In this document: positions 13,996 to 39,164 of the stretch, piece by piece
How the letters are laid out: the number at the start of each line of letters is the position of its first letter
Position numbering within the stretch: position 1 is the stretch's first letter
DNA from: a virus
Virus record (IMG/VR): IMGVR_UViG_3300032093_000074
Location: 1 to 64,000 of that record
Reading direction: 5' to 3' (one strand)
Length of the DNA stretch: 64,000 bases
Made by a program: the position numbers and the translations under genes
The notes under the pieces: generated by a model
Told to the model about the DNA's origin: nothing
Databases searched by the model: none
What the model saw: only the letters and a program-made list of their open reading frames with translations

Positions 13996-14280
13996 ATGAC
14001 CGTTTTGAAGGGGGCCGAAATCCTGGGTGAAGCACACCAGCTCATCACCGGTCCAAGACAACAACAATACGCACACCCGTACGAGGACTACAGCAAAGTT
14101 GTGGACATCTTCTACGGGCTAACCGGCGTCCGTCTCACCGTCCATGAAGCACTCTGTTTCATGGTGTCAGTCAAAATGGCACGGCTACGCACAGCCGTGG
14201 AACGTGGAGGCTGGCACCATGATTCGCTGGTGGACGCCATCGGATATTTGGGGTGCATCAACATGGTGGAGAAACGATGA
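13996..14280 (+). CDS. DUF6378-like protein
   Basis: IL.EA..LITG.RQ..Y.HP, M..VK.AR, H.DS.VD.IGY motifs. Confidence 0.75.
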   Translation: MTVLKGAEILGEAHQLITGPRQQQYAHPYEDYSKVVDIFYGLTGVRLTVHEALCFMVSVKMARLRTAVERGGWHHDSLVDAIGYLGCINMVEKR

Positions 14281-15553
14281 GATTCGGAAGTTTGTTCGCA
14301 GGAGTAGGCGGATTCGATATCGGGTTGGAAGCAGCCGGATGGGAATGCGCATGGCAAGTCGAATGGGACAAACATTGCCAACAAACACTTCAACACCATT
14401 GGCCGGACGTACCGAAATGGTGGGATGTGTCCGACGTAAACGGTGCAGAACTACCACCGGTAGACGTCATCACGTTCGGTTCACCATGCCAAGACCTGTC
14501 TGTCGCAGGCAAAAGGGCAGGTCTAGACGGCGGACGTTCCAACCTATTTTTTGAAGCAACAAGAATCATCAAGGAGATGCGAGATGCAACAAACGGAACC
14601 TATCCAAGATGGGCTATTTGGGAGAACGTACCAGGAGCCTTATCCAGCAACAACGGTGCAGACTTTGAGAGGGTCCTCGAAGAAATGGTTGACCTCGGGG
14701 GTCATCACATCGAATGGAGCATCCTTGATGCGCAGTTCTTCGGAGTCCCCTAACGGCGTAGACGAGTGTTCGTCCTCGCTTGTTTCGATGCTTCAATCCT
14801 CCAACGAGGTGGCAGACCGGTACTTGCTGTCGGGGAAAGCCGCAGAAGGAATCCTGCGAAGGGCAAACAAGCGGGGCAAAACACTTCCCCCACAACTCCA
14901 GCAGGCTTTGGAGATAGTGGTTTTGCACGGTGGCAGGAACGGGAAGTAACAGTCACACTCGCAGCCCGAGACTACAAATCCCCCAACACGGTTGTTGTTG
15001 AAGAACAATGGCCAGCTGGGACAACAGAAGACGACGTTCTCGCCACCTCTATATGCAGCAAATGGGCTAAAGGCACAGGCGGACCGTCAGGGAGCGAATA
15101 TTACAACCTGGTGGTGGACAGCCATGTGGTTCACGAAAAGTAGGCGTGCCCAAAATGTTGACGATTACGAAACATGGAATATGGGGGGGGGTGTCACCGA
15201 CATTGAACGCTTTTGACAACACCGGGGATAGCCGTGCAACCGTCCTCATCATTGATGGGACCCGTGTCAACGATGTCCGAATCTACGACGACGAAATCAC
15301 CCCATGCTTGAAAAACAGGATGGGGACAGGAGGCAACAACGTGCCACTCATACAGGAGCAAGAAATGCAAGTACGCAGACTCACCCCCGTCGAATGTGAA
15401 CGACTCATGGGATGGCCCGACAACCACACACTCCCCCGAGCAGACGGCAAAACAAACAGCGACACCACCCGCTACAAAATGTGCGGCAACGGAGTCGCAT
15501 CACCAGTAGCCCAATGGATAGCAGAACAAATCAACAATGCAGAACATCTGTGA
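14277..15553 (+). pseudogene. C5-cytosine DNA methyltransferase, interrupted (in-frame TAA at 14751; frame changes near 15120 and at G9 tract 15183-15191)
   Basis: SLFAGVGG, GSPCQDLS, WENVPG, GVP*RRRRVF, RRLTPVECERLMGWP, YKMCGNGV motifs spread over three reading segments. Confidence 0.85.
14584..14949 (+). CDS. Overlapping-frame methyltransferase beta subunit (M.EcoHK31I beta-like)
   Basis: Own AAGGAG RBS; SL.SML....RYLLSGKAAEGILRRANKRGKTLP motif; +1 frame inside the MTase. Confidence 0.75.
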   Translation: MQQTEPIQDGLFGRTYQEPYPATTVQTLRGSSKKWLTSGVITSNGASLMRSSSESPNGVDECSSSLVSMLQSSNEVADRYLLSGKAAEGILRRANKRGKTLPPQLQQALEIVVLHGGRNGK

Positions 15554-15686
15554 CCATTGCGGAACCGTCAACCTCGCCCTCACAACCTGGACACGGCAAC
15601 AAATCGAAGGATGCGAATGCGGATGCCACCAAGCACAGGCATACCGGATAGCGAAAAAAACCAAATCAAAGAAATGGAAAAAATGA
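15537..15686 (+). CDS. Small Cys-rich protein (CDHC..CECGCH)
   Basis: Manual translation; ATGA-coupled to whiB. Confidence 0.55.
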   Translation: MQNICDHCGTVNLALTTWTRQQIEGCECGCHQAQAYRIAKKTKSKKWKK

Positions 15687-15949
15687 GAAACAAAAACTGG
15701 AGAAACGAAGCAGCATGCCGCGGGGTGGACATCGCCATCTTCTACCAAGGGCGAGGAAGCGGACCCCGCATGTACGACAAAGCCCGAGAATACTGCAACC
15801 AATGCCCAGTCCTAGCTGACTGTTTCGAGTTCATCATGGAAATAGAACTAGACCCACACAACCACCGCTGCGGAATGTTCGCAGGACTCACCCCCAAGCA
15901 ACGTGCCGCATACCAAGCACAAAGAGACACCAATGTTTCTGCCTCTTAA
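15683..15949 (+). CDS. whiB: WhiB-family transcription factor
   Basis: W...AAC..IF...AREYCNQCPVLADC...GMFAGLTPKQR. Confidence 0.9.
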   Translation: MRNKNWRNEAACRGVDIAIFYQGRGSGPRMYDKAREYCNQCPVLADCFEFIMEIELDPHNHRCGMFAGLTPKQRAAYQAQRDTNVSAS

Positions 15950-16187
15950 ATGGATGAGCGAAGCAGCATGTGTCGGTGCCCCAACAGAAATCTTCTTCCC
16001 CGAAATCAACGGTGGCAACACCGAAGAAGGCTGGGTTGAAGCCCGAAAATACTGCGCTGAATGCACCGTCCGAAAAGAATGTTTGGCGCTAGTCCAACAA
16101 TGGGAAAGCCCGGACGTCCGCCGCAACGGAATGTGGGGCGGGATGACACCAACCGAACGTGACAGGCATTTCTCCCGCAAAAGATGA
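15933..16187 (+). CDS. whiB: WhiB-family transcription factor
   Basis: W...AAC..IFFP..ARKYCAECTVRKEC..GMWGGMTPTER. Confidence 0.93.
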   Translation: MFLPLKWMSEAACVGAPTEIFFPEINGGNTEEGWVEARKYCAECTVRKECLALVQQWESPDVRRNGMWGGMTPTERDRHFSRKR

Positions 16188-17878: not shown

Positions 17879-18502
17879 CTAGCGCTTCGGTTGACGCTGG
17901 GGCATCAGAACCCCTACGAACCGGTGCGGACCTTGCACCGACTCAACCCGTGTCGGTTTCGTATCGTGAACCGCCACCATCACCGCCCCGTCGGTTTTGC
18001 CGGCGAAAACCTGGGCAGACTTGAAAAGGTCCGCCATGTGGCCCCCGTTAAAACATGCGGGGAGTGTCGGCGGGTTGTCTGCCATTGCAAGAATCGAAGC
18101 GCAGTTAGGCGACTCACCCCACAAAAGCGGGAGAGTGCAGGACGCTTTGAAAGTGGAAAGAGCCACGAACCCTTCCGATTCATCCACCGCAAAACCTACC
18201 GGCGTGTCACGCTTTTCCGGATTCTTTAAAGCAGCTTTCACGAAGGCGCTCAGAGTCTTCACCGCATCGGCGGGCAAAACCATAGAACCGTTACGGTTCA
18301 TAAAAGCATCGTGCGCCGATGTCTCTAGTTCTACTGAATGCAGACGGTACGAATCGGTAGCCCACACTCTCGCCGTCTCTGCTGGATGCATCTCAAAGTG
18401 AAGCGCATTCAACATGGGCCGATTCTTTTCCGAAGACATGGCAGGCGTGACCGCTCCCAAAATGTCGGACAGTAGCCCCGCCCGAAAATCGATAACCAAC
18501 AT
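17879..18502 (-). CDS. Truncated (two-domain) DNA polymerase III beta-clamp-like protein
   Basis: RPMLNALHFE, WATDSYRL, PNCASIL, CFNGGHMADL, VGVLMPQR match DnaN domain II-III motifs; AAAGGGG RBS. Confidence 0.8.
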   Translation of the reverse strand: MLVIDFRAGLLSDILGAVTPAMSSEKNRPMLNALHFEMHPAETARVWATDSYRLHSVELETSAHDAFMNRNGSMVLPADAVKTLSAFVKAALKNPEKRDTPVGFAVDESEGFVALSTFKASCTLPLLWGESPNCASILAMADNPPTLPACFNGGHMADLFKSAQVFAGKTDGAVMVAVHDTKPTRVESVQGPHRFVGVLMPQRQPKR

Positions 18503-18542
18503 TGTTAACCCCTTTACTTTCATGTAGTGCCCACGGTGGGCA

Positions 18543-18586
18543 CCGTCCCTGTCCCGAATCGAATCGGCACGCCCAAGGCGACAGGG
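18543..18586 (-). ncRNA. Mini-tRNA-like element 3 (degenerate T-arm)
   Basis: CCCTGTC GCC-TTG-GGC GTG CCGA-TTCGAT-TCGG GACAGGG ACGG; 7-bp acceptor of different sequence but fully paired. Confidence 0.7.
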
Positions 18587-18724
18587 GGAGCGGGTCTGTT
18601 ATTCGGCAGTGAACCCTACCGAATCCCCACACGATGCGCACACGGTAGCGGGTGCATCACCGTGACACCCATCCCATCCACCGTAAATGGCTCCTGTATC
18701 GGCCACTCATTGCCGACACCCCCA

Positions 18725-18753
18725 ACAATACCGAATAGTCGGACTATTGACAA
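18725..18753 (-). promoter_or_regulatory. Early promoter with palindromic operator in the spacer
   Basis: TTGTCA-17 nt-TATTGT on minus strand; AATAGTC-G-GACTATT palindrome at 18734-18748. Confidence 0.7.
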
Positions 18754-19254
18754 GGGGGAAATAGCAAATATTCCCCACCCCAAAAACCAGGATTTTGCCC
18801 CCCAAGATTCGAACCCCCCACCCTCCCGCACCCCCACCTGCCTGCCTTCCCACCTTGTAGGCGCACCTTCCCGAAACATACGCACCCCCTCCGCCGGTAC
18901 CTTTCTGATTGTTGCCGTCCCCGTGTCCCCCGCTACCTGTGCCCGCCTGCCTTTTGTTTCGGACCCGCCCTGCCTGTCCCCGTTGCCTGTCTGCCGGAGC
19001 GCTCGGGCTGCACACGCAACCGGCCAAGTGCCGAGGCACCCCCCTGCCAATATACTTATTATCGGTTCTGTATGTGTTCACACTAGGTTTGGTATCAACG
19101 AAGTTGATACCCTGGGGGGTTTGTGGTTGGTTTTGTGGTGTTGTATTGCTTGGTCGAGTTTGTATTAGTGGGTTTTGTATTAGCTTGCGGGCGTGACGGC
19201 TGTCACGTGGTTGGGTGGCCGGGGTGTCGAACATGCGGCTTATTGGCAGAAAAA

Positions 19255-19745
19255 GAAAAAGTTGCCAAAAAGAAAAAGGTTGTATCCGACCCGGCGTTGT
19301 CGGCCAGCCTGCTTTGTTGCATCCTGGTAGCAACCGAGCTTGCGAGGGCGGTAGCCAGCGGCATTCATGCTGTTCGGCTTGCGTCTTGCCCGCTGGAACA
19401 GCAGACAGGCTTCTGCTCCCCCCACGCTTCGACACTCTTTTGAGAGCATCCGGTGGCCGTTAGCTATCTTCAAGCCGACACCGTACAAATCCTTTTTCTC
19501 CCCCTCGACGTATCTGTTGCGCTACCGTTCTATGTCTCGGTACTAGGTTCTTCAACAGGCGTTTTTTGCATGGGAGGGCGGTCCCCGTTTCCGGCCATAT
19601 ACACCCTTCCCACCTCCATGCTCTGCGATGGGGTCCGGGTCATGCTTGCCCTGTCGCTTCCCAGCGAGGGGGACTTACTCGATTAGATGACCGACACTTG
19701 AGACGTAAGCCAGATGGCTGTCACAGAGGTGCCGGTCGTACCGAC
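19255..19745 (-). ncRNA. Candidate ~490-nt structured non-coding RNA
   Basis: TGC-TACTAT extended -10 at 19758-19750; GNRA-capped hairpins; 9-bp long-range helix; ends at hairpin plus U-rich tracts; no convincing ORF. Confidence 0.45.
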
Positions 19746-19786
19746 ATTGATAGTAGCAGAACCGTATGGTATGTTGTCAACTACAC

Positions 19787-21763
19787 ATGGGGACTAGACG
19801 GATAGTTTCAGACGCAGACAAAGCCCGCTACTGGGCTGCACGACAGTCCGGCATGTCACAGAAAGATGCCTCCAGAATCGCAGGCATCCACTTCAACACC
19901 GCCTCCAACTGGGAAAAGAAACGCTCCGAAACAAAAGCAGCTCTAGAACTAGCACAAGTTGAAGGGAAACAACACCGCAAAAATCAGGGTGGGAACCAAA
20001 ACGATTCAATGAAACTGTTGGCAGACTCACTCGAACTGCCCCCAGCTATACCCCACGACCGGCTCTGCCCCGAAGCAAAACGAGGGTTGGAGGACTTCGA
20101 CTTTTTCAGAACCTACTATTTGGGGCGTGTCCCATCCCCTTGGCAGGTTGAAGCCGCATACAAGATTGTTCAATATCTAGAATCCCCTGAGAAAGAGTTT
20201 TTGGTGCTGAACGTCGCACCAGGCGCAGGCAAATCCACCCTATTCCACGATGTTGCTGTGTGGTGCATCGTCCGAAACCGTGCGATTCGAGTCCTCTACG
20301 GCTCTATCTCCCAAAACCTTGCGAAAATGTATTCAAGACGTATCCGAGACACGTTGGAACGCCCAACAGCTTTGGAACCCGACCCCGAACTGGTGAAGAA
20401 GGGGCTGGCAGTCAACGCTAAAGGCTGCCTATCTCTTGACTATGGCAGGTTCAAACCGGCATCGACAGGTGCTTTGTGGAGGGCAGATGAGTTCATTGTG
20501 GAACAGGACATTGTGGGCAACCTTGACAACAAGGAACCGACAGTCCGAGCGTACGGTATTGACGCCGAGTTCATCGGTCACCGAGCAGATTTGTGTCTTT
20601 TCGATGACGTTGCCTCTACAGAGAACGCCCGAGAATCAACTGCCCGAGACAAACTGTTGGAACGTTGGGATTCGATGGCGGAAGCCCGAGTTGACCCAGG
20701 CGGTCTGCTTGCCGTCATCGGACAGCGGTTGGGGCCGGGCGACCTGTACGCACATTGCCTATCTAAAGTCACATATGATGACGACGACTACGAATATGAT
20801 GGTTCAGACGTAGAAAACCCGGAGGATATCCGTGCGGAACCCACTAAAAGGTCCAAATATCATCACATCATCTATCAGGCGTATTACCCCGAGCTTGATA
20901 CGGGCAAAGAATCTCGTAGTGTTTCTGCCCTACCGTTTCCGAAAGGACCCCTTCTAGACCCTGTACGTCTTTCTTGGAAAGATTTGTCGTACATCAAATA
21001 CTCTAACCCCACCACTTTCAGGGTTGTGTACCAGCAGGAGGATGCGGCTGACGAATCCTATTTGGTGACACGCACCATGCTGACCGGTGGGATGGGCGAC
21101 GACGGGGTTCTCTACCAGGGCTGTATCGACAATGACCGGATGCCGGGGCAAATACCGTACGGGTTGGCCCCCCCGATTATTTCTATTGTCTCAGTAGACC
21201 CGTCACCCACCCAGTTTTGGGCTTTGACATGGATGCTGTACCAGCCTGACACCAACCTGTACCACATCATCGACGTTGAACGAACCAAACTGACTGCTGA
21301 AGGATTGTTGGGGTTCAACACAACCACCGGTGTGTATAGCGGGATGATGGAGGAATGGCAGAACCGGTCATGGTCTTTGGGGTATCCGATATCGCATTGG
21401 GTGGTGGAAATCAACGCCGCCCAGCGGTTCCTGCTCGCCCACGACTTCATCCGCAAATGGCAGTCTTTGCATGGGGTGAACGTGGTCCCGCACACCACTT
21501 CTAGAAACAAGCTTGACGAAAACCTAGGTGTGGAGGCTCTGCTCCCCCCGTTGGTGCGTACCGGCGCTATGCGGTTCCCGTCGATGCGGGGCAACTGGAA
21601 GACGATGGCTGCGGTTGACGAACTATGCAAGTGGACCCGTGACAAAAAGAACGGCACCGACATTGTGATGAGTCTTTGGATGGGTGTACTCAACCTGCCG
21701 AACCTGACCCAAACGAAGGCTCCGCCCCGTCTGTGGCGTCCGTCGTGGATGCTTGAACGCTGA
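19787..21763 (+). CDS. terL: Terminase large subunit with N-terminal HTH
   Basis: GMSQKDASRIAGIHFNTASNWE HTH; APGAGKST Walker A; LCLFDDV Walker B; SVDPSP and DIVMSLW nuclease motifs. Confidence 0.9.
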   Translation: MGTRRIVSDADKARYWAARQSGMSQKDASRIAGIHFNTASNWEKKRSETKAALELAQVEGKQHRKNQGGNQNDSMKLLADSLELPPAIPHDRLCPEAKRGLEDFDFFRTYYLGRVPSPWQVEAAYKIVQYLESPEKEFLVLNVAPGAGKSTLFHDVAVWCIVRNRAIRVLYGSISQNLAKMYSRRIRDTLERPTALEPDPELVKKGLAVNAKGCLSLDYGRFKPASTGALWRADEFIVEQDIVGNLDNKEPTVRAYGIDAEFIGHRADLCLFDDVASTENARESTARDKLLERWDSMAEARVDPGGLLAVIGQRLGPGDLYAHCLSKVTYDDDDYEYDGSDVENPEDIRAEPTKRSKYHHIIYQAYYPELDTGKESRSVSALPFPKGPLLDPVRLSWKDLSYIKYSNPTTFRVVYQQEDAADESYLVTRTMLTGGMGDDGVLYQGCIDNDRMPGQIPYGLAPPIISIVSVDPSPTQFWALTWMLYQPDTNLYHIIDVERTKLTAEGLLGFNTTTGVYSGMMEEWQNRSWSLGYPISHWVVEINAAQRFLLAHDFIRKWQSLHGVNVVPHTTSRNKLDENLGVEALLPPLVRTGAMRFPSMRGNWKTMAAVDELCKWTRDKKNGTDIVMSLWMGVLNLPNLTQTKAPPRLWRPSWMLER

Positions 21764-24421: not shown

Positions 24422-27400
24422 GTGGCGTTTCGCATAGCCCCAGACGAGGAAGAAGCAATCCTTCGGGGGATGAGAAGGGAAGCGGAATCCAAAAACCAAA
24501 TCCGCACCAATATCCGCCCCGAAACTTCAGACAAAATCTCTGAACTTCACAAGAAATATCCGTGGCTTTCCCCCGGTGTTTTGCTTGCCGCATCTAAAGG
24601 CAATGTGTCGCAAGAACTTTTGGATGCGATGTCTGCCTCTATCGCTACGATGGCGAACGAGGACCCCGATAAGGCGAACGGTAAAGATAAAGGCAACTGG
24701 TTTAGTAGTGCTGTGAAAGGTGCGACACGTTTGACGTTCGCAGCTTTTGACACATCTAAAGAACTGTTTCAAAACATTGTTGCCAAAACCCCTATCCCTG
24801 TCGCAACAGAATATGTTGGGGCGAAAGTCCAGCAGGCAACCGGTCAAACTGAGGCAGGTTACGGCGGTCCGAAAGCTTCCGATATTGCGATAGTGAACGA
24901 TGCCGCTTCACGGCAAGGCGAAGGCGGTTTCGGAGAGTTCATCGGCTCAACCACTTTGGCGTCTCTTGCCCGCAACTGGGAGAATCAAGGTAGCGGATAT
25001 TTTGTGTCCGAAAACATTGTGCAGGAACAGCGGGAACGTGCCAAAAAGTTTCGTGGCACAACCCAAGGAGGCCACGCATGGACCCCTGGCCGCGGGTTCG
25101 CTGGCATGGTTTTCAACGAGGACAGTTACGCATACAACCTGATGTCAGGTTTCGTTGACGGGGCTGTCGCAGTCAAAATCCCTGTCGCCCCAGGTGTCGC
25201 TTTCGGGTTGACGAAAGTCAGCGAACTCGCCGCAGCTGACGACGCCGGAGATGTTTTGAGGCAGGCTGGCCGTGTCGCAGACACTCTGCAAGGCCGTGGG
25301 CAGGTCATCAAAATATCGGACATGACTGGCGAAGAACTGCGTGAGGCTCGACGCTTGGCAGGTTTGGTTGGCGACACGGTAGATGTTGAACAAGCCAACG
25401 CTTTCCTCGGCACCCGTGCCGGTCGCCGTCTTGTTGAACGTCTTGTAGACGCAAACACCACAGACGACGTTCGACGGCTTTTGGGACGCAACCTGTATGC
25501 AGACACGGTAAAACAGTTGCGTGACGCCAAAAACGAGTTTGAGGTGCAAGCAGTTTTGGCCGACGTTTTGGGCAAACCGCAGGCAGGTTTGGCAAGCACT
25601 AAAGGCGTTAAAGGTGTCAAAAAGGTTGCTTTATCTAACGCCCGCAGGTTGAAGATGATGGAGTCTTTAGACACTCAGGTCGGGTTGAAAATCAAACGTG
25701 GACTCGGCTACAAACCTGGGCGCATGTTTGACATGTCTTCCACCAACCCTGCCGACGTTCGACGCACTTTGAACCAAATAGATGACTGGGCTAAAACCAC
25801 GTTAATGGACGAGGAAACCCGTCGCACGTTGCTAGACAAGGCTGTTGATGCGATGGTTGGGGACACCGCTACCCCCACCGCCCGTAAAGCGTTCAAAGAA
25901 GAATTTGAGCAAATCGCTGTTGATTCTTTGGTGAAAAATAGCAATGTTGACAAAAATGTTGCTGCTGTTGTTTTGCTGACTATGCCCACAAGAATGAAAA
26001 AGGTCACCAAATGGGCGCTCGGCCCTGACGGTGTGCCGGACGACGCAGGGTTTCTTAAGAATGCGACACGGGTAGGCGACGACGTTGTTGACGACGCATC
26101 TTTCGGTGGGGCGATGCTGAGTTCTGAACTCGCAGATGTCATTGTAGAGATGCCGGACCCACGGCAGGTTCGAGCAATCAGTAACCGCTTCAACAAGATT
26201 TGGCGGTACAAGCCAAAAGATGTTGGCCCGTTGAAGGACGCAAACCTTGAAAGACTTGCGAAGGCTGGCACGTTGCGTCCCCCGTTTTCAGCGGTGATGT
26301 GGGCGCAAGACAAACTGTTCCGCCGACTCATCTTGATGACCGGTGGCTATTCGGTGCGCAACCTTACCGAAGCCCAACTCCGCATCGCTTTGTCTTACCG
26401 AAACGTGGAAGGCGTTTTTGACCACCCCGCATCATGGCTTGGCTGGGCCACCCACAAAAAGGGCGCTTTCGACATCACCGGCGAAGCGTTTGACTACAAC
26501 ACTCTTACCGACAATATGCGCACATTCCGTGAAGCGGTGCAGGCAGAAAACTTCACAGACTTCGGTGACCCCACTATCGCTTACCGTCGAGGAAAAAGAA
26601 TCGGCTACTTTGACGAGGTTGACCGCACCGACCCCCAGCAGTTCGACTTGGTTGTTGAGGCGCACGGTGACCAAATCGGGTTGCTTAACGCCGACCCTGT
26701 AGCCCGCCGTGTTGCTGGCGGGGCAACAGACGAAGAAATCCTTGTGTTTCTGCGCACCGACCCTGAAGGTAAGGCTTGGTTCCGTAACCAGCAGGACTAT
26801 CACATTAACGGTCGTCCAACATTTGAAAAGACAACCCGTGGCTACAAGCATGTCGGCAACCAGCAAGTTGACCTGAATGTTGAAGAAAACCTTTTGCTTC
26901 ACATCAAAGAGATTCGCACCCGAATCGAATACCAAACTGGTGGCGATACCCGCCTAAAGAACGTCATCGCCCAAGGCCAGTTGCCTGTTGAAACGGTTGT
27001 TATCGCTAACCAAACTGTTGCTGGGCGACCTCTCGGTGCGCTTATCAACAAAAACGATGAGGGCCAAGCCCTCATGCTGGAATACAAGGTCCCTGGAAGC
27101 AACCGTCCAGGCACCCGACAGGTTCGAGTTCAGTCGGTGGACGAAGCAACCGGCGAAGCGGTTGTAGTCCCATTCGCTTTTGAAAGAGGCGAAGCAAGCC
27201 TTGACCTTCGCAAACTGCTGGAAGCAGACGACGTTTACTACAACCCGAAACTCACAGAAATCCTGCCACATGAGATTCGAGTTGATTCTTTGAAGGAACG
27301 CCCGTGGGACGCTGGGTGGGACGATATGACCGACAGAGCGTTCGCTTTCCTTTACGGCAAACCTTCCCGCTACTTGGACCGGTCACCGCTGTTCCGCCAG

Positions 27401-29209
27401 TTCTACTACAGCATGGCTATAGACCAGTTGCTCACCTCACTAAGCATCGACGACGCAATCCGTTTGCACGACAACATTGTGGAATCCGCCGCAAAAGTGG
27501 GACGCAAACCCGAGTTTTATTTGGGTGACAAGAAACGCTGGCAACGCATCCAAGACGCCAAAGACGGCAAACTCCCTATGCAGGGCACATTGACTTTAGA
27601 AGAAGTAGACGACTTTGCTAAAGGTCAGGCTTTGGACGAACTCAAAGGTTTGCTTTACGACGCCAGCAACGTGCGAAACTCTATGGACGCCGCCCGAGTC
27701 GTGTTCCCGTTCGCTAACGCTTTCGTAGAGTTCTACAAATCTATTGGCCGTGCCTACACAATGCCGACGCTGACCGGTGTCCCTCTGCCAAACCTAAAGT
27801 CTCTCCGCAAAACCCAGTTGGTTGTTGACGGCGGGCGTGATGCAGACCCAGACGGTGACGGTCGAGGGTACTTCTTTGTGGACCCCGAAACACAGGAATG
27901 GTCATTCACCTACCCAGGCTCAGGGTTTATTACTAAAAGCCTACTGGGTTTGACAGCCCCTCTGACCGCCCCTATCGCTGGCGCTTTGCAAGGTGTCGGG
28001 TTGAGCGAAGGCGACTTTTTCGGTTTGAAAACTAACCCAGGTTTGGGGCCGGTAGTTAACGTCCCAGCATCCTTCATGTTTTCAAAGGTTCTCCCCGACA
28101 CAGATTTTGTTCGGTCTGTAGAAAAGTTTTTTCTCCCATTCGGCAAAACCGAGTTCACCACAGAAACAGGTGGGGTTGCTTCCGGGGTTGTCAAATCTTT
28201 TCTCCCAGCTTGGTCCACCAAAATCATGTCAGCGGTGTTTGACGACCCGCAAAGCCTTACCGCTTTTGGCAACGCCGCATTCGAAACCCGCCAAGCGTTG
28301 CTTGCTACCGGCGAATACGACTTGAACAACTTTGAATCCATGAAACAGTTGGAGGAAGACACCAACTACAAGGCCCGCTGGTTGACGGTTATTCGTGCAG
28401 CAGGCCAGTTCACCGGTCCTTCCCGCCCAAGTTCAGAGTTCAAAACCAAGGTGATGGACGGCGATGTCTACATCAACCAAGCCATCGCAGACCTTCGTCG
28501 TTGGCAGTTGGAAGATTATGATTCTGCAATCTTGCGGTTCTTGGACACATACGGAGACGACTTTTGGGCATATCTCGCTCGCAAAACTTCTACCGGAGAG
28601 TTTGAAGCATTGGGCACCAGCGCCGACTTCGGTTCATGGGAACGAGACAACCCCGATTTTCTTCGAGAGTTCCCGAACGTCGCATCATATTTCGCCCCTG
28701 TCGGAACCGGCTTTGACTATTTTGTCTACACCGGCCAAATCGGTAAAGGTATGCGCCGCCGAGAAACTAACAAGGCATCGTTTAACGCAGCCCAATACTA
28801 TGTGGTTGGTGCGCAGATGCGTCTCGCCAACAAGCTCATCGGAGACAACCCGACCCCTGAGCAAGAAGAAGAACTAGACGCATACCGTAAAGCCCTCGAA
28901 TCCGATTACCCTGGGGCAAAATCGTATCCTTTCAACCCCAACAAACTACCCAACCAAATTGAGGCTTTATACAGCGCTGCTTTCGTATCAAGCATGGACG
29001 GCAACCCTGTAGCGGAAGGCACCCGCCTCTATCTGCAACAGCGGACCAACGTCTTGGCGCAGGTTGAATCAACCGGTCAAGGTTTGGGTGCTAAAAAGAA
29101 CCTTGAATACCGCAACCTTTTGCGGGCTTCAGCAAACATTATTATTGAAGAATACCCAGAGTTTGAACGTCTTTGGGAACGTGTACTTTCTAGAGAACTG
29201 GACCGCTGA
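24422..29209 (+). CDS. Large internal virion/ejection protein (1595 aa)
   Basis: Very long helical ORF in head module of a genome with no tape measure; function inferred from context. Confidence 0.6.
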   Translation: MAFRIAPDEEEAILRGMRREAESKNQIRTNIRPETSDKISELHKKYPWLSPGVLLAASKGNVSQELLDAMSASIATMANEDPDKANGKDKGNWFSSAVKGATRLTFAAFDTSKELFQNIVAKTPIPVATEYVGAKVQQATGQTEAGYGGPKASDIAIVNDAASRQGEGGFGEFIGSTTLASLARNWENQGSGYFVSENIVQEQRERAKKFRGTTQGGHAWTPGRGFAGMVFNEDSYAYNLMSGFVDGAVAVKIPVAPGVAFGLTKVSELAAADDAGDVLRQAGRVADTLQGRGQVIKISDMTGEELREARRLAGLVGDTVDVEQANAFLGTRAGRRLVERLVDANTTDDVRRLLGRNLYADTVKQLRDAKNEFEVQAVLADVLGKPQAGLASTKGVKGVKKVALSNARRLKMMESLDTQVGLKIKRGLGYKPGRMFDMSSTNPADVRRTLNQIDDWAKTTLMDEETRRTLLDKAVDAMVGDTATPTARKAFKEEFEQIAVDSLVKNSNVDKNVAAVVLLTMPTRMKKVTKWALGPDGVPDDAGFLKNATRVGDDVVDDASFGGAMLSSELADVIVEMPDPRQVRAISNRFNKIWRYKPKDVGPLKDANLERLAKAGTLRPPFSAVMWAQDKLFRRLILMTGGYSVRNLTEAQLRIALSYRNVEGVFDHPASWLGWATHKKGAFDITGEAFDYNTLTDNMRTFREAVQAENFTDFGDPTIAYRRGKRIGYFDEVDRTDPQQFDLVVEAHGDQIGLLNADPVARRVAGGATDEEILVFLRTDPEGKAWFRNQQDYHINGRPTFEKTTRGYKHVGNQQVDLNVEENLLLHIKEIRTRIEYQTGGDTRLKNVIAQGQLPVETVVIANQTVAGRPLGALINKNDEGQALMLEYKVPGSNRPGTRQVRVQSVDEATGEAVVVPFAFERGEASLDLRKLLEADDVYYNPKLTEILPHEIRVDSLKERPWDAGWDDMTDRAFAFLYGKPSRYLDRSPLFRQFYYSMAIDQLLTSLSIDDAIRLHDNIVESAAKVGRKPEFYLGDKKRWQRIQDAKDGKLPMQGTLTLEEVDDFAKGQALDELKGLLYDASNVRNSMDAARVVFPFANAFVEFYKSIGRAYTMPTLTGVPLPNLKSLRKTQLVVDGGRDADPDGDGRGYFFVDPETQEWSFTYPGSGFITKSLLGLTAPLTAPIAGALQGVGLSEGDFFGLKTNPGLGPVVNVPASFMFSKVLPDTDFVRSVEKFFLPFGKTEFTTETGGVASGVVKSFLPAWSTKIMSAVFDDPQSLTAFGNAAFETRQALLATGEYDLNNFESMKQLEEDTNYKARWLTVIRAAGQFTGPSRPSSEFKTKVMDGDVYINQAIADLRRWQLEDYDSAILRFLDTYGDDFWAYLARKTSTGEFEALGTSADFGSWERDNPDFLREFPNVASYFAPVGTGFDYFVYTGQIGKGMRRRETNKASFNAAQYYVVGAQMRLANKLIGDNPTPEQEEELDAYRKALESDYPGAKSYPFNPNKLPNQIEALYSAAFVSSMDGNPVAEGTRLYLQQRTNVLAQVESTGQGLGAKKNLEYRNLLRASANIIIEEYPEFERLWERVLSRELDR

Positions 29210-37804: not shown

Positions 37805-38439
37805 TGGGGGTTTCTAACGGTATTGGCGGCACTATCGGGGCGTTGCCTCCTGGTGTTGTGATGCCGTATGCGGGTCCTTCTGCTCCTGCGAACTGGTTGT
37901 TGTGTGGCGGGCAGGCGGTGTCTCGCACGGATTATGGCTCGTTGTTTGCTGTTATTGGGACAACGTATGGTTCAGGCGATGGCTCGACCACGTTCAATGT
38001 TCCTGACCTTCGTGGTCGTGTTGTTGCTGGCGAAGACGACATGGGTGGGACTGCCGCCAACCGTTTGACTTCAGGTGGTTCCGGTATTACGGGGACAACA
38101 TTGGGGGCTAGTGGTGGTGCCCAAACGCATACGCTGACCTCGGCAGAGATGCCAAGCCATACGCACGTTCAAGATTCGCACAACCACACCCAAAACGCCC
38201 ATAGCCACGGACCAGGAAACGAAACAAGATTCGTCACTAACAGCGGGCAACTTATTGCCGGTTTGACTGCGGGGAACGCTCTGTACAGCCCATTTAATGC
38301 TTCCACATCAACAGCAAACGCAACAGCAACCAACATTGCTACTACCGCAACTAACCAAAACACGGGTGGCGGTGGGGCGCACAACAACGTGCAGCCGACG
38401 ATGGTTATGAACTACATCATTAAAGCGAGCAACTACTGA
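37804..38439 (+). CDS. Tail-collar domain short fibre
   Basis: PGVVMPYAG..PANWLLCGGQAVSRT..GDGSTTFNVPDLRGR. Confidence 0.9.
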   Translation: MGVSNGIGGTIGALPPGVVMPYAGPSAPANWLLCGGQAVSRTDYGSLFAVIGTTYGSGDGSTTFNVPDLRGRVVAGEDDMGGTAANRLTSGGSGITGTTLGASGGAQTHTLTSAEMPSHTHVQDSHNHTQNAHSHGPGNETRFVTNSGQLIAGLTAGNALYSPFNASTSTANATATNIATTATNQNTGGGGAHNNVQPTMVMNYIIKASNY

Positions 38440-39164
38440 TGCCCATCTCTAACTATGTTCCGACCTCTGCGATTGCCCGTCCTGGGGTGTGCACCAGCAC
38501 GACTCGTCCTGCCAGCCCTTTTGAGGGGCAGGTTATTTATGAGACTGACACGGACCTGATTCGGGTGTGGACTGGTGCGTTGTGGGAAATCGTTATCAAC
38601 ACAACAAAAACGTATGCGAATGAAGCAGCCCGTAACGCTGCAATCCCGACTCCGTACGAGGGCTTGGAAGTGTATTTGACAGCACCTACTGCCCCTGCTG
38701 CTACGGGTGGTTCTACGTTTATCCCTGCTGGCATCAAGACTGTGTATGACGGGTCTAACTGGGTATGCGTAACCGAGGTGTCTGCCCGAACCGACACGTC
38801 AGGCACAGTTGATGTGAACCCTTGGGTTGCTCTCACGGGTGGTGGTACGGCTCCTACTGTCACGCTCACGACGGGGACAAAGGCGTTGGTTACCTTGCAA
38901 TCACGGGTTGTTTGTTCCGTCACATCAACGCAGTTGTTTTACCTTGGCGTTGTCGTTACGGGAGCAAGCACAATCGGTGTCAATAGTTATTGGTCAACAG
39001 GCAGACCGTCGTCAAATACCAGTGACCAGTATATTAATGGGAGTTTTATTGTGACAGGTTTGACCCCTGGCTCTAACACATTTGGTATTCAATATGGGCG
39101 CACCAATGTTGGTGGTGCTGTTACTTTTGCTGACCGACAGATTACGGCTGTGGGGTTGTTGTGA
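38439..39164 (+). CDS. Putative adhesin, allele of 119..700 with different C-terminus
   Basis: First 39 aa near-identical, then unrelated; second anchor-like repeat AARNAAIPTPYEG. Confidence 0.7.
   Translation: MPISNYVPTSAIARPGVCTSTTRPASPFEGQVIYETDTDLIRVWTGALWEIVINTTKTYANEAARNAAIPTPYEGLEVYLTAPTAPAATGGSTFIPAGIKTVYDGSNWVCVTEVSARTDTSGTVDVNPWVALTGGGTAPTVTLTTGTKALVTLQSRVVCSVTSTQLFYLGVVVTGASTIGVNSYWSTGRPSSNTSDQYINGSFIVTGLTPGSNTFGIQYGRTNVGGAVTFADRQITAVGLL

Follow-up and report, generated by a model that had tools for sequence, protein, structure and literature searches.

Evidence for a Structured, Pseudoknotted Noncoding RNA Family in Phages of Freshwater Actinobacteria

Introduction

What occupies the long intergenic gap upstream of the terminase gene in an uncultured phage, and what might it do there? 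The question is raised by IMG/VR virus record IMGVR_UViG_3300032093_000074, of which positions 1–64,000 (64,000 nt, hereafter the window) were analyzed. In this window, a gap of 1.24 kb separates a minus-strand gene for a short sliding-clamp-like protein from the plus-strand gene for a large terminase subunit (TerL). A sequence-only reading had proposed that the gap encodes a large noncoding RNA (ncRNA) on the minus strand, possibly a replication primer of the ColE1 RNA II kind or a packaging or regulatory RNA. We find that a structured ncRNA gene almost certainly lies at window positions 19743–19250 (minus strand, ~490 nt), with the length and strand proposed, as supported by covariation, a strand asymmetry of G·U pairs, a conserved promoter, and the lack of a conserved open reading frame (ORF).

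A Conserved Fold Supported by Covariation

The RNA is composed of a pseudoknotted core of ~290 nt (helices P1–P9), a conserved 3′ hairpin module, and mirror U-rich tracts at its end (table 1). Homologs adopt three architectures, type A (that of the window), type B, and a short type C, which differ in the central domain and have in common the GNRA hairpin, the invariant 3′ domain, and the downstream hairpin module. For type A, 16 helices comprising 69 pairs were drawn on the window sequence and evaluated in 25 sequences against 500 shuffles and against controls with slid partners. Double-sided changes are found in 44 of the 69 pairs (27.1 ± 2.8 in shuffles), and the covariation score is 0.299 compared with 0.120 for the shuffles, none of which reaches the observed value, and at most 0.098 for slid versions. 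The elements with the best support are P3, P9, P2, P5, P6, the pseudoknot PK1, and the GNRA hairpin P4. The 3′ domain, represented by 116 distinct sequences, has 88.7% of its cells paired and a covariation score of 0.466 (0.154 shuffled, 0/500; slid versions at most 0.157), and the module P10 scores 0.281 (0.082 shuffled, 0/500), its pair 6:33 occurring as AU in 22, GC in 6, and CG in 5 sequences. Compensatory changes, the generic mark of a structured RNA, therefore exceed both the shuffled and the slid controls for type A, the 3′ domain, and P10; this is the comparison of homologous pre-terminase regions that the sequence-only reading had put forward as a check. Folding of single sequences is uninformative alone (z-scores of −1.8 sense and −1.1 antisense).

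Both GNRA-type hairpins pointed out in the sequence-only reading, one capped by GGGA and the other by GAAA, are present and covary; in P4, the stem CCG/CGG is replaced by CAG/CUG, CCA/UGG, or ACG/CGU in relatives. P1 is missing from some relatives (L005, L040), and in another (L041:2546–3103) an insertion of ~77 nt lies within the P1 hairpin (columns 221–297 of alignment A4). Double changes occur in P5, P6a, and P6, the inner pairs of P6 being poorly aligned by MAFFT; P7 is without covariation. The proposed long-range helix of 9 bp (19665–19673 with 19499–19507) did not survive: 60.8% of its positions are paired compared with 57.5% in shuffles, and slid versions do equally well. Partial second matches to the part of the RNA that contains the GNRA hairpin were seen in two contigs, ~11 kb from the full copy (L051:12239–12301 and L059:866–923).

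The 3′ domain has the consensus N-GGUGUCGGCU-loop-GGCU-ACGGC-X-ACC-N'-[variable hairpin]-RAA-Y-N-GUGGGGGG-AGC, and the G6 run noted in the sequence-only reading is part of it. Mutual information within this domain singles out P9, the closing pair of P8, and the isolated X:Y pair between the bulge of P8 and the segment that follows P9 (T1 in table 1). RNAalifold alone gives the same P8, bulge included, and the same P9.

Table 1. Features of the RNA Gene and Its Surroundings in the Window.
Feature	Position	Strand	Description or basis
RNA promoter	19750..19780	-	-35 TTGACA 19780-19775; 19-nt spacer; extended -10 TGC-TACTAT (TGCTACTAT) 19758-19750
P0, predicted extra 5′ leader hairpin	19689..19737	-	Window and L099 only; minimum free energy (MFE) fold, alignment A4
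P1 hairpin, GGGA loop	19649..19672	-	UCGCU-GGGA-AGCGA 19667-19654; compensatory changes in A4 helices 1-2
P2 and P3	19603..19640	-	P2 19640-37/19606-03, double changes in 3/4 pairs; P3 19632-27/19614-09, double changes in 6/6 pairs
PK1 pseudoknot	P3 loop 19621-19616 with 19573-19568	-	Double changes in 4/6 pairs
P4, GNRA-capped hairpin	19580..19596	-	CCG-GAAA-CGG 19594-19585; near-invariant across three subtypes; 100% paired
P5, P6a, P6, P7	19502..19578	-	P5 19578-74/19506-02 encloses P6a, P6 19558-53/19519-14, and P7 19542-38/19527-23
Purine linker	19491..19500	-	GAG-A5-GG (G-A5-G 19498-19492); pairs with 19279-19272 in MFE fold, tentative
3′ domain, invariant	19414..19483	-	P8 19483-76/19459-51 with bulged X 19455; P9 variable hairpin 19450-31
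T1 tertiary pair	19455 with 19427	-	Watson-Crick X:Y; GC 58, CG 38, UA 12
G6 run, invariant G-run	19423-19418	-	Read in sequence; part of 3′ domain
PK2, tentative	Tail AGC 19417-14 with loop 19464-61	-	3′ domain; loop GGCU and 3′ tail AGCU covary
P10, hairpin module	19326..19354	-	CU-X1X2-CGCC...GGUUG-Y1Y2; once or twice in relatives
GC hairpin	19286..19303	-	CCGAC-N8-GUCGG; 8 nt before U tracts
Two homopyrimidine tracts, U5CU5	19277-19267 and 19260-19250	-	Mirror repeat around GGCAAC; presumed RNA 3′ end
Noncoding remainder downstream of RNA	18524..19249		CA-rich tract; C6/G6 inverted repeat 19038-19057 / 19101-19120; G-rich runs
Promoter-like site before clamp-like gene	18753-18725	-	Promoter scan
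Short sliding-clamp-like protein gene, 214 aa	17879-18523	-	Weak similarity to central domain of DNA polymerase III beta clamp and phage processivity factors
Large terminase subunit gene, N-terminal helix-turn-helix (HTH)	19766..21763	+	phrog_38 at 4e-62; Pfam HTH_3 residues 27-56; divergent from RNA gene

Strand, Promoter, and Expression

The functional strand is minus, because the U·G pair in P8 (invariant in 116/116 sequences) and the G·U pair in P10 (33/33) would be C·A mismatches on the opposite strand; alifold energies are also lower on the minus strand in all three subtypes. We consider it highly improbable that the locus works instead at the level of DNA, as a cos/pac site, an origin hairpin, or H-DNA, or as a gene for a small protein. 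Its homopurine/homopyrimidine mirror repeat is a classic H-DNA motif, and an antisense ORF of 77 aa is open in both copies of the element found in the record; however, the invariant G·U pairs and the G·U-tolerant covariation are strand-specific and indicate RNA, the promoter is conserved in the sense direction, and the ORF was rejected as a gene since it is broken in most homologs. Among 67 homologs no conserved reading frame was found, the antisense ORF having a median length of 13 aa and usually GTC at its start codon, and the lengths of indels separating conserved blocks are not divisible by three, in agreement with the earlier statement that the region holds no credible ORF.

The minus-strand promoter that had been described is present, with its spacing of 19 nt, and transcription would be expected to start at ~19745. 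A simple promoter scan accepts only spacers of 16–18 nt and therefore missed it. In homologs, TANNNT is found 12–17 nt upstream of P1 in 53/64, with the TG of an extended −10 element (TGnTAnnnT) in 41 of those 53. The promoter of the window and of L099, which is the same apart from a spacer of 17 nt in L099, lies ~55 nt farther upstream than in other homologs, and an extra 5′ hairpin (P0) has been gained. When L099:2792–3320 is compared with window 19640–19790, the promoter, 5′ leader, and P1 are near-identical base by base and the central domain is different, a mosaic that points to recombination within the RNA gene. On the plus strand, the simple scan found no promoter-like site inside 19250–19743; the sole such site, at 19747–19775, is located ahead of the start of the RNA and is oriented toward the terminase gene.

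Evidence of expression comes from assembled contigs, which carry no information on ends or strand. In two freshwater metatranscriptome studies, contigs of 175–221 nt from relatives (80–90% alike) cover the core at 19492–19674 and nothing else in 18500–20300; a library that is probably DNA covers both the RNA and the terminase gene. Gaps in coverage among the RNA runs, one of which had no match to the stretch, are uninformative. We take these contigs as a weak hint of a discrete, abundant RNA.

The 3′ End

The sequence-only reading had the RNA end at a hairpin followed by U5 tracts. The hairpin (19303–19286) and the tracts (U5CU5 twice, at 19277–19250) are there; a simple scan found no canonical terminator. 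Comparable hairpins in relatives lie 3–5 nt before their U tracts, and the mirror symmetry of the tracts is kept in the three subtypes with differing run lengths. By a strict test a U-rich tract is present in 25/103 sequences, and in more by eye.

A purine linker located 220 nt upstream of the tracts contains G-A5-G, which matches their C-U5-C cores. In type A, G-A5-G accompanies C-U5-C in both tracts in 7/7 sequences, and two type B sequences have G-A4-G with C-U4-C (2/2). As a general feature the match was rejected: it fails in subtypes B and C apart from those two sequences. The co-occurrence of linker and tracts, together with their pairing in the MFE fold, makes a fold-back or a triple helix that locks the 3′ end possible, as is H-DNA. 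The layout recalls the 3′ triple helix of the ENE/MALAT1 type, with two U-rich strands bearing a central C, mirror symmetry, and a matching purine strand (G-A5-G), from which U·A-U and C+·G-C triples could form; unlike in those elements, the purine strand is not a poly(A) tail but an internal segment, and the arrangement is confined to subtype A and two subtype B sequences. We know of no ENE/MALAT1-type element in phages.

A Family Carried by Unrelated Phages

The complete IMG/VR record is 79,213 bp long, the window being its first part. Self-comparison shows that it consists of two phage genomes of ~38.3 kb (unit 1, positions 1–38320) and 40.9 kb (unit 2), head to tail and joined via a common tail-fiber sequence that is 91–97% identical (1–258 matches 38321–38578, and 36334–37880 matches 77667–79213). 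The record is probably an assembly chimera, though its CheckV completeness rating is 100%. Tail-fiber genes and one protein of 200 aa are common to the two units, and nothing else is in a protein comparison. Within the unrelated unit 2, at positions 65809–66072 of the record, lies a second copy of the RNA that is 74–82% identical to the core of the first (19410–19693); the flanks of the two copies are dissimilar. WhiB-like regulators are encoded in both units, which makes it very probable that both phages infect Actinomycetota. Those of unit 1 are encoded by adjacent, overlapping genes (15557–15949 and 15903–16187), and that of unit 2 at record positions 67510–68478.

Further members were found in two ways. 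Of 45 IMG/VR loci fetched as terminase relatives, at least 27 carry the element ahead of the terminase gene and on the opposite strand, as detected with a profile built from the two copies; a pattern derived from the invariant 3′ part recovered at least 119 further IMG/VR contigs, nearly all confirmed by nhmmer. The collection comprises 78 distinct representatives at 90% identity. An exact 39-mer has no match in IMG/VR, and cultured phages gave no blastn match to the RNA. In GTDB, sampled at one genome per prokaryote species, the 3′-domain pattern has 68 matches, of which only two are genuine according to nhmmer and the covariance model, namely L196 and L229, both of them short, phage-like contigs from a single metagenome-assembled genome of Lake Mendota; by the same tools the others were dismissed as chance. 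The 3′-domain covariance model (R1) found nothing in a sample of 151 Microbacteriaceae genomes. Public sequencing runs that contain the window stretch are lake and freshwater metagenomes. The RNA thus defines a phage-specific family carried by freshwater actinobacterial phages. Many contigs end 40–450 nt downstream of the RNA, as a repeat shared between genomes would be expected to break assemblies; we discarded the idea that these are physical genome ends, as contigs of ~38 kb hold the RNA in mid-contig.

As regards novelty, the Rfam check suggested in the sequence-only reading matched no family at the pre-terminase RNA. Rfam 15 has no match in the 64-kb window at gathering thresholds, a single irrelevant 17-bit match, outside the element, in 18500–19850 at E ≤ 10, and none at E ≤ 1 in seven loci spanning the three subtypes. 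The families RNAI (RF00106), Phage_pRNA (RF00044), GOLLD, ROOL, 6S, RNase P, and tmRNA gave no covariance-model match, and no tRNA or tmRNA was detected with ARAGORN. Searches of the literature turned up no description of this RNA. A structured-RNA screen of the same database, IMG/VR, yielded 10,006 candidate motifs without names, 14 of them consistently upstream of the large terminase gene (Fremin et al. 2023, PMC10690425), and our family may be one of these motifs; the main text of that study describes neither the anatomy and strand of such a motif nor its promoter or function. We therefore regard the RNA as a previously unclassified family, which that catalog may list, of a known kind, the large ornate phage ncRNAs. 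This kind includes the GOLLD and ROOL RNAs, which are often borne by phages or prophages and for which cryo-electron microscopy (cryo-EM) structures are available (bioRxiv 10.1101/2024.12.08.627333). Like them, the new RNA is a large stand-alone phage ncRNA that contains many covarying helices as well as pseudoknots and lacks an obvious protein partner. It differs in having no sequence or structure match to either (cmscan, E ≤ 10), in its size (core ~290 nt and transcript ~490 nt compared with roughly 580–800 nt), in its location beside packaging genes rather than near tRNA genes, and in having been found only in freshwater actinobacterial phages.

A Possible Trans-Acting Function

The function that we tentatively favor, with a confidence that stays somewhat below even, is that of a stable RNA acting in trans on a host-supplied partner by virtue of its three-dimensional fold. 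In this model, a host-type promoter (σA-like, extended −10) would drive the RNA, which would accumulate as a discrete stable species, its 3′ end probably locked or protected by a tentative fold-back of the mirror U tracts and the purine linker. Through its precise fold, the RNA would then act on a partner from the shared host, which could be a protein that is sequestered or scaffolded, or possibly a substrate that is acted upon. We favor this model because the gene is an autonomous cassette, from promoter to end, that is shared by unrelated phages, and because the architecture of the RNA resembles those of ribozymes and protein-binding RNAs. Few natural RNAs exceed ~250 nt and combine several pseudoknots with invariant tertiary contacts, and most of the understood ones are ribozymes or the cores of ribonucleoproteins. 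The partner is less likely to be a phage protein because the two lineages have no candidate partner gene in common.

Several observations weigh against this model. The strict positional tie to the terminase and control region and the lack of an initiator fit a role in cis or at an origin at least as naturally; the RNA occupies part of a long noncoding control region that immediately precedes the packaging genes, from which the RNA diverges. Both ends of the RNA were placed from sequence features, the host partner is deduced, and the 3′ fold-back is tentative. A simple terminator scan returned no canonical intrinsic terminator in 18400–19900, because the U tract begins 8 nt past the stem. The metatranscriptome support consists of a few short contigs from relatives, for which DNA carry-over is possible. 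Double changes are present in PK2, but a rival local extension of P8 is 90% paired, and the two may be alternative pairings. Lastly, R1 detected no copy in the terminase relatives of the 64–66% identity group, from which divergent variants may escape detection.

The RNA is abundant in lake viromes, is common to unrelated phages of one host group, and is located at the meeting point of signals for replication, early transcription, and packaging, in genomes without a recognizable replication initiator. Knowledge of its partner would reveal either a new way in which phages manipulate actinobacteria or an RNA-based start of replication or packaging. With a mass of ~160 kDa, the RNA is tractable for cryo-EM.

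Gene Neighborhoods and Alternative Functions

The same HTH-bearing TerL family is encoded divergently from the RNA, at most three ORFs upstream, in 72 loci, with the portal gene next in order; unit 2 and L054 have a different TerL at 2.4–2.9 kb in the same relative orientation. The TerL of the window is only 25–31% identical to those of cultured phages. This association suggests that the RNA or its transcription might help the HTH-bearing TerL to recognize or process the genome, either as a motor component comparable to the phi29 packaging RNA (pRNA) or as a substitute for the small terminase or pac function, a proposal that we regard as very unlikely. In favor of it, no small terminase was recognized in unit 1, whose TerL has an N-terminal HTH. 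Against it, a small ORF of unit 2's own probably lies immediately before TerL, the RNA-to-TerL distance varies from about 40 nt to 2.9 kb across loci, and adjacency may simply mark a module boundary. The resemblance to phi29 pRNA is that of a structured phage RNA with an early host-type promoter and a genetic tie to DNA packaging, and the covarying loop and tail of PK2 could pair between molecules as well as within one, as loop pairings may in a packaging RNA. Yet an early host-type promoter is at odds with a late function, RF00044 is not matched, and the new RNA, known here from sequence rather than from proheads, is two to three times larger, in phages that rely on classical terminases and not on a gp16 of the phi29 type with terminal protein.

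On the other side of the RNA, no gene is conserved across loci; noncoding DNA follows, with a median of at least 406 nt. The genes that come next in unit 1, that of the clamp-like protein and others, are co-directional with the RNA, which comes directly after a promoter and has a terminator-like region at its end. The RNA could accordingly be a leader that acts in cis by altering RNA polymerase or read-through into the minus-strand early genes, similar to the put RNA of HK022, a riboswitch, or an attenuator. We assign this reading a very slim probability, below that of a packaging role. In unit 2, a leader function is ruled out by the convergent orientation of the downstream genes; only 44/101 loci have a co-directional ORF as their nearest downstream neighbor, and these nearest ORFs belong to no conserved family; and the clamp-like gene has a separate promoter-like site (table 1). 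The clamp-like protein is about half the size of a usual clamp.

The gene content of unit 1 bears on a third alternative. It includes a RecE-like exonuclease, an annealing protein, RusA, SSB, a split methyltransferase, two WhiB-like proteins, and the clamp-like protein. The sequence-only reading had recognized no replication genes, and our PHROG and Pfam scans agree, identifying no polymerase, primase, helicase, or initiator in unit 1, several ORFs of which are without assignment. In other loci, too, the large conserved genes near the RNA serve recombination (RecE-like, RecT-like, exonuclease), and no initiator, polymerase, primase, or helicase was found among them. A second, unrelated lineage of phages that carry the RNA likewise has only RecE/RecT-type genes, SSB, RusA, and a short clamp-like protein, and none of these four functions was found in it.

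Transcript-primed origins include that of ColE1 (RNA II), the R-loop origins ori(uvsY) and ori(34) of T4, and the primary origin of T7. An origin or primer RNA is the main rival to the trans-acting model and one that we hold to be unlikely, if less so than a packaging role: the fold and the invariant G-run would promote a persistent R-loop beside the A/T-rich mirror tract, which host enzymes would extend before the RecE/RecT-type recombination genes of the phage take over. It would suit the gene content just described, the location of the RNA in the largest noncoding region, the order of strong promoter, invariant G6, and A/T-rich homopurine/homopyrimidine tract, and the inverted repeats downstream. 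What RNA II has in common with the new RNA is a promoter-driven noncoding transcript of ~500 nt with a G-run, in a replicon without its own initiator, whose folding would matter. Of the earlier comparison to RNA II, the argument from initiator-less gene content holds; the RNA differs from RNA II in that there is no homology, no Rfam RNAI match, no promoter for an antisense control RNA (RNA I) inside the RNA, and no fixed geometry between the G-run and the start of replication, the origin here being only putative. In relatives, between 2 and 229 nt separate the G-run from the U-rich tract, and by the strict test above most sequences have no tract. GC skew is without an origin signal, and hybrids of rU and dA, as would form at the U tract, are weak. 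In addition, pseudoknots, a GNRA loop, and conserved tertiary pairs of ribozyme or riboswitch grade exceed the needs of known primer RNAs and are not obviously required of a primer. The T4 and T7 origins are similar in that an A/T-rich element comes after a promoter, in phages with recombination genes suited to recombination-dependent replication; they differ in that no elaborate RNA fold is needed there, and in many of our relatives the A/T-rich tract is absent or elsewhere. The fuller form of this proposal, an RNA II-like replication-initiation device of initiator-less actinobacterial phages with a triple-helix 3′ end, is somewhat less likely still; if true, it would extend the RNA II principle to lytic phages and bring a triple-helix 3′ end to the bacterial world. 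Our preference thus remains with a trans-acting RNA.

Other Features of Unit 1

The noncoding stretch between the RNA and the clamp-like gene (table 1) is a candidate cos/pac or origin sequence. Relatives carry a similar motif, ACAGGACGGGUAUUA-C6-7/G6-7-CUCGGCA.

The DNA methyltransferase of unit 1 is apparently split into two of the three ORFs at 14253–14753, 14766–15143, and 15146–15553. The two match consecutive parts of phrog_116 (positions 202–361 and 411–493), with an unassigned ORF of 125 aa between them, and the split could reflect a frameshift, an insertion, or an intron-like element. The portal region is directly followed by an ORF of 1595 aa (24422–29209, plus strand) that has no Pfam match, and a homologous ORF of ~1576 aa is found in 9 related loci.

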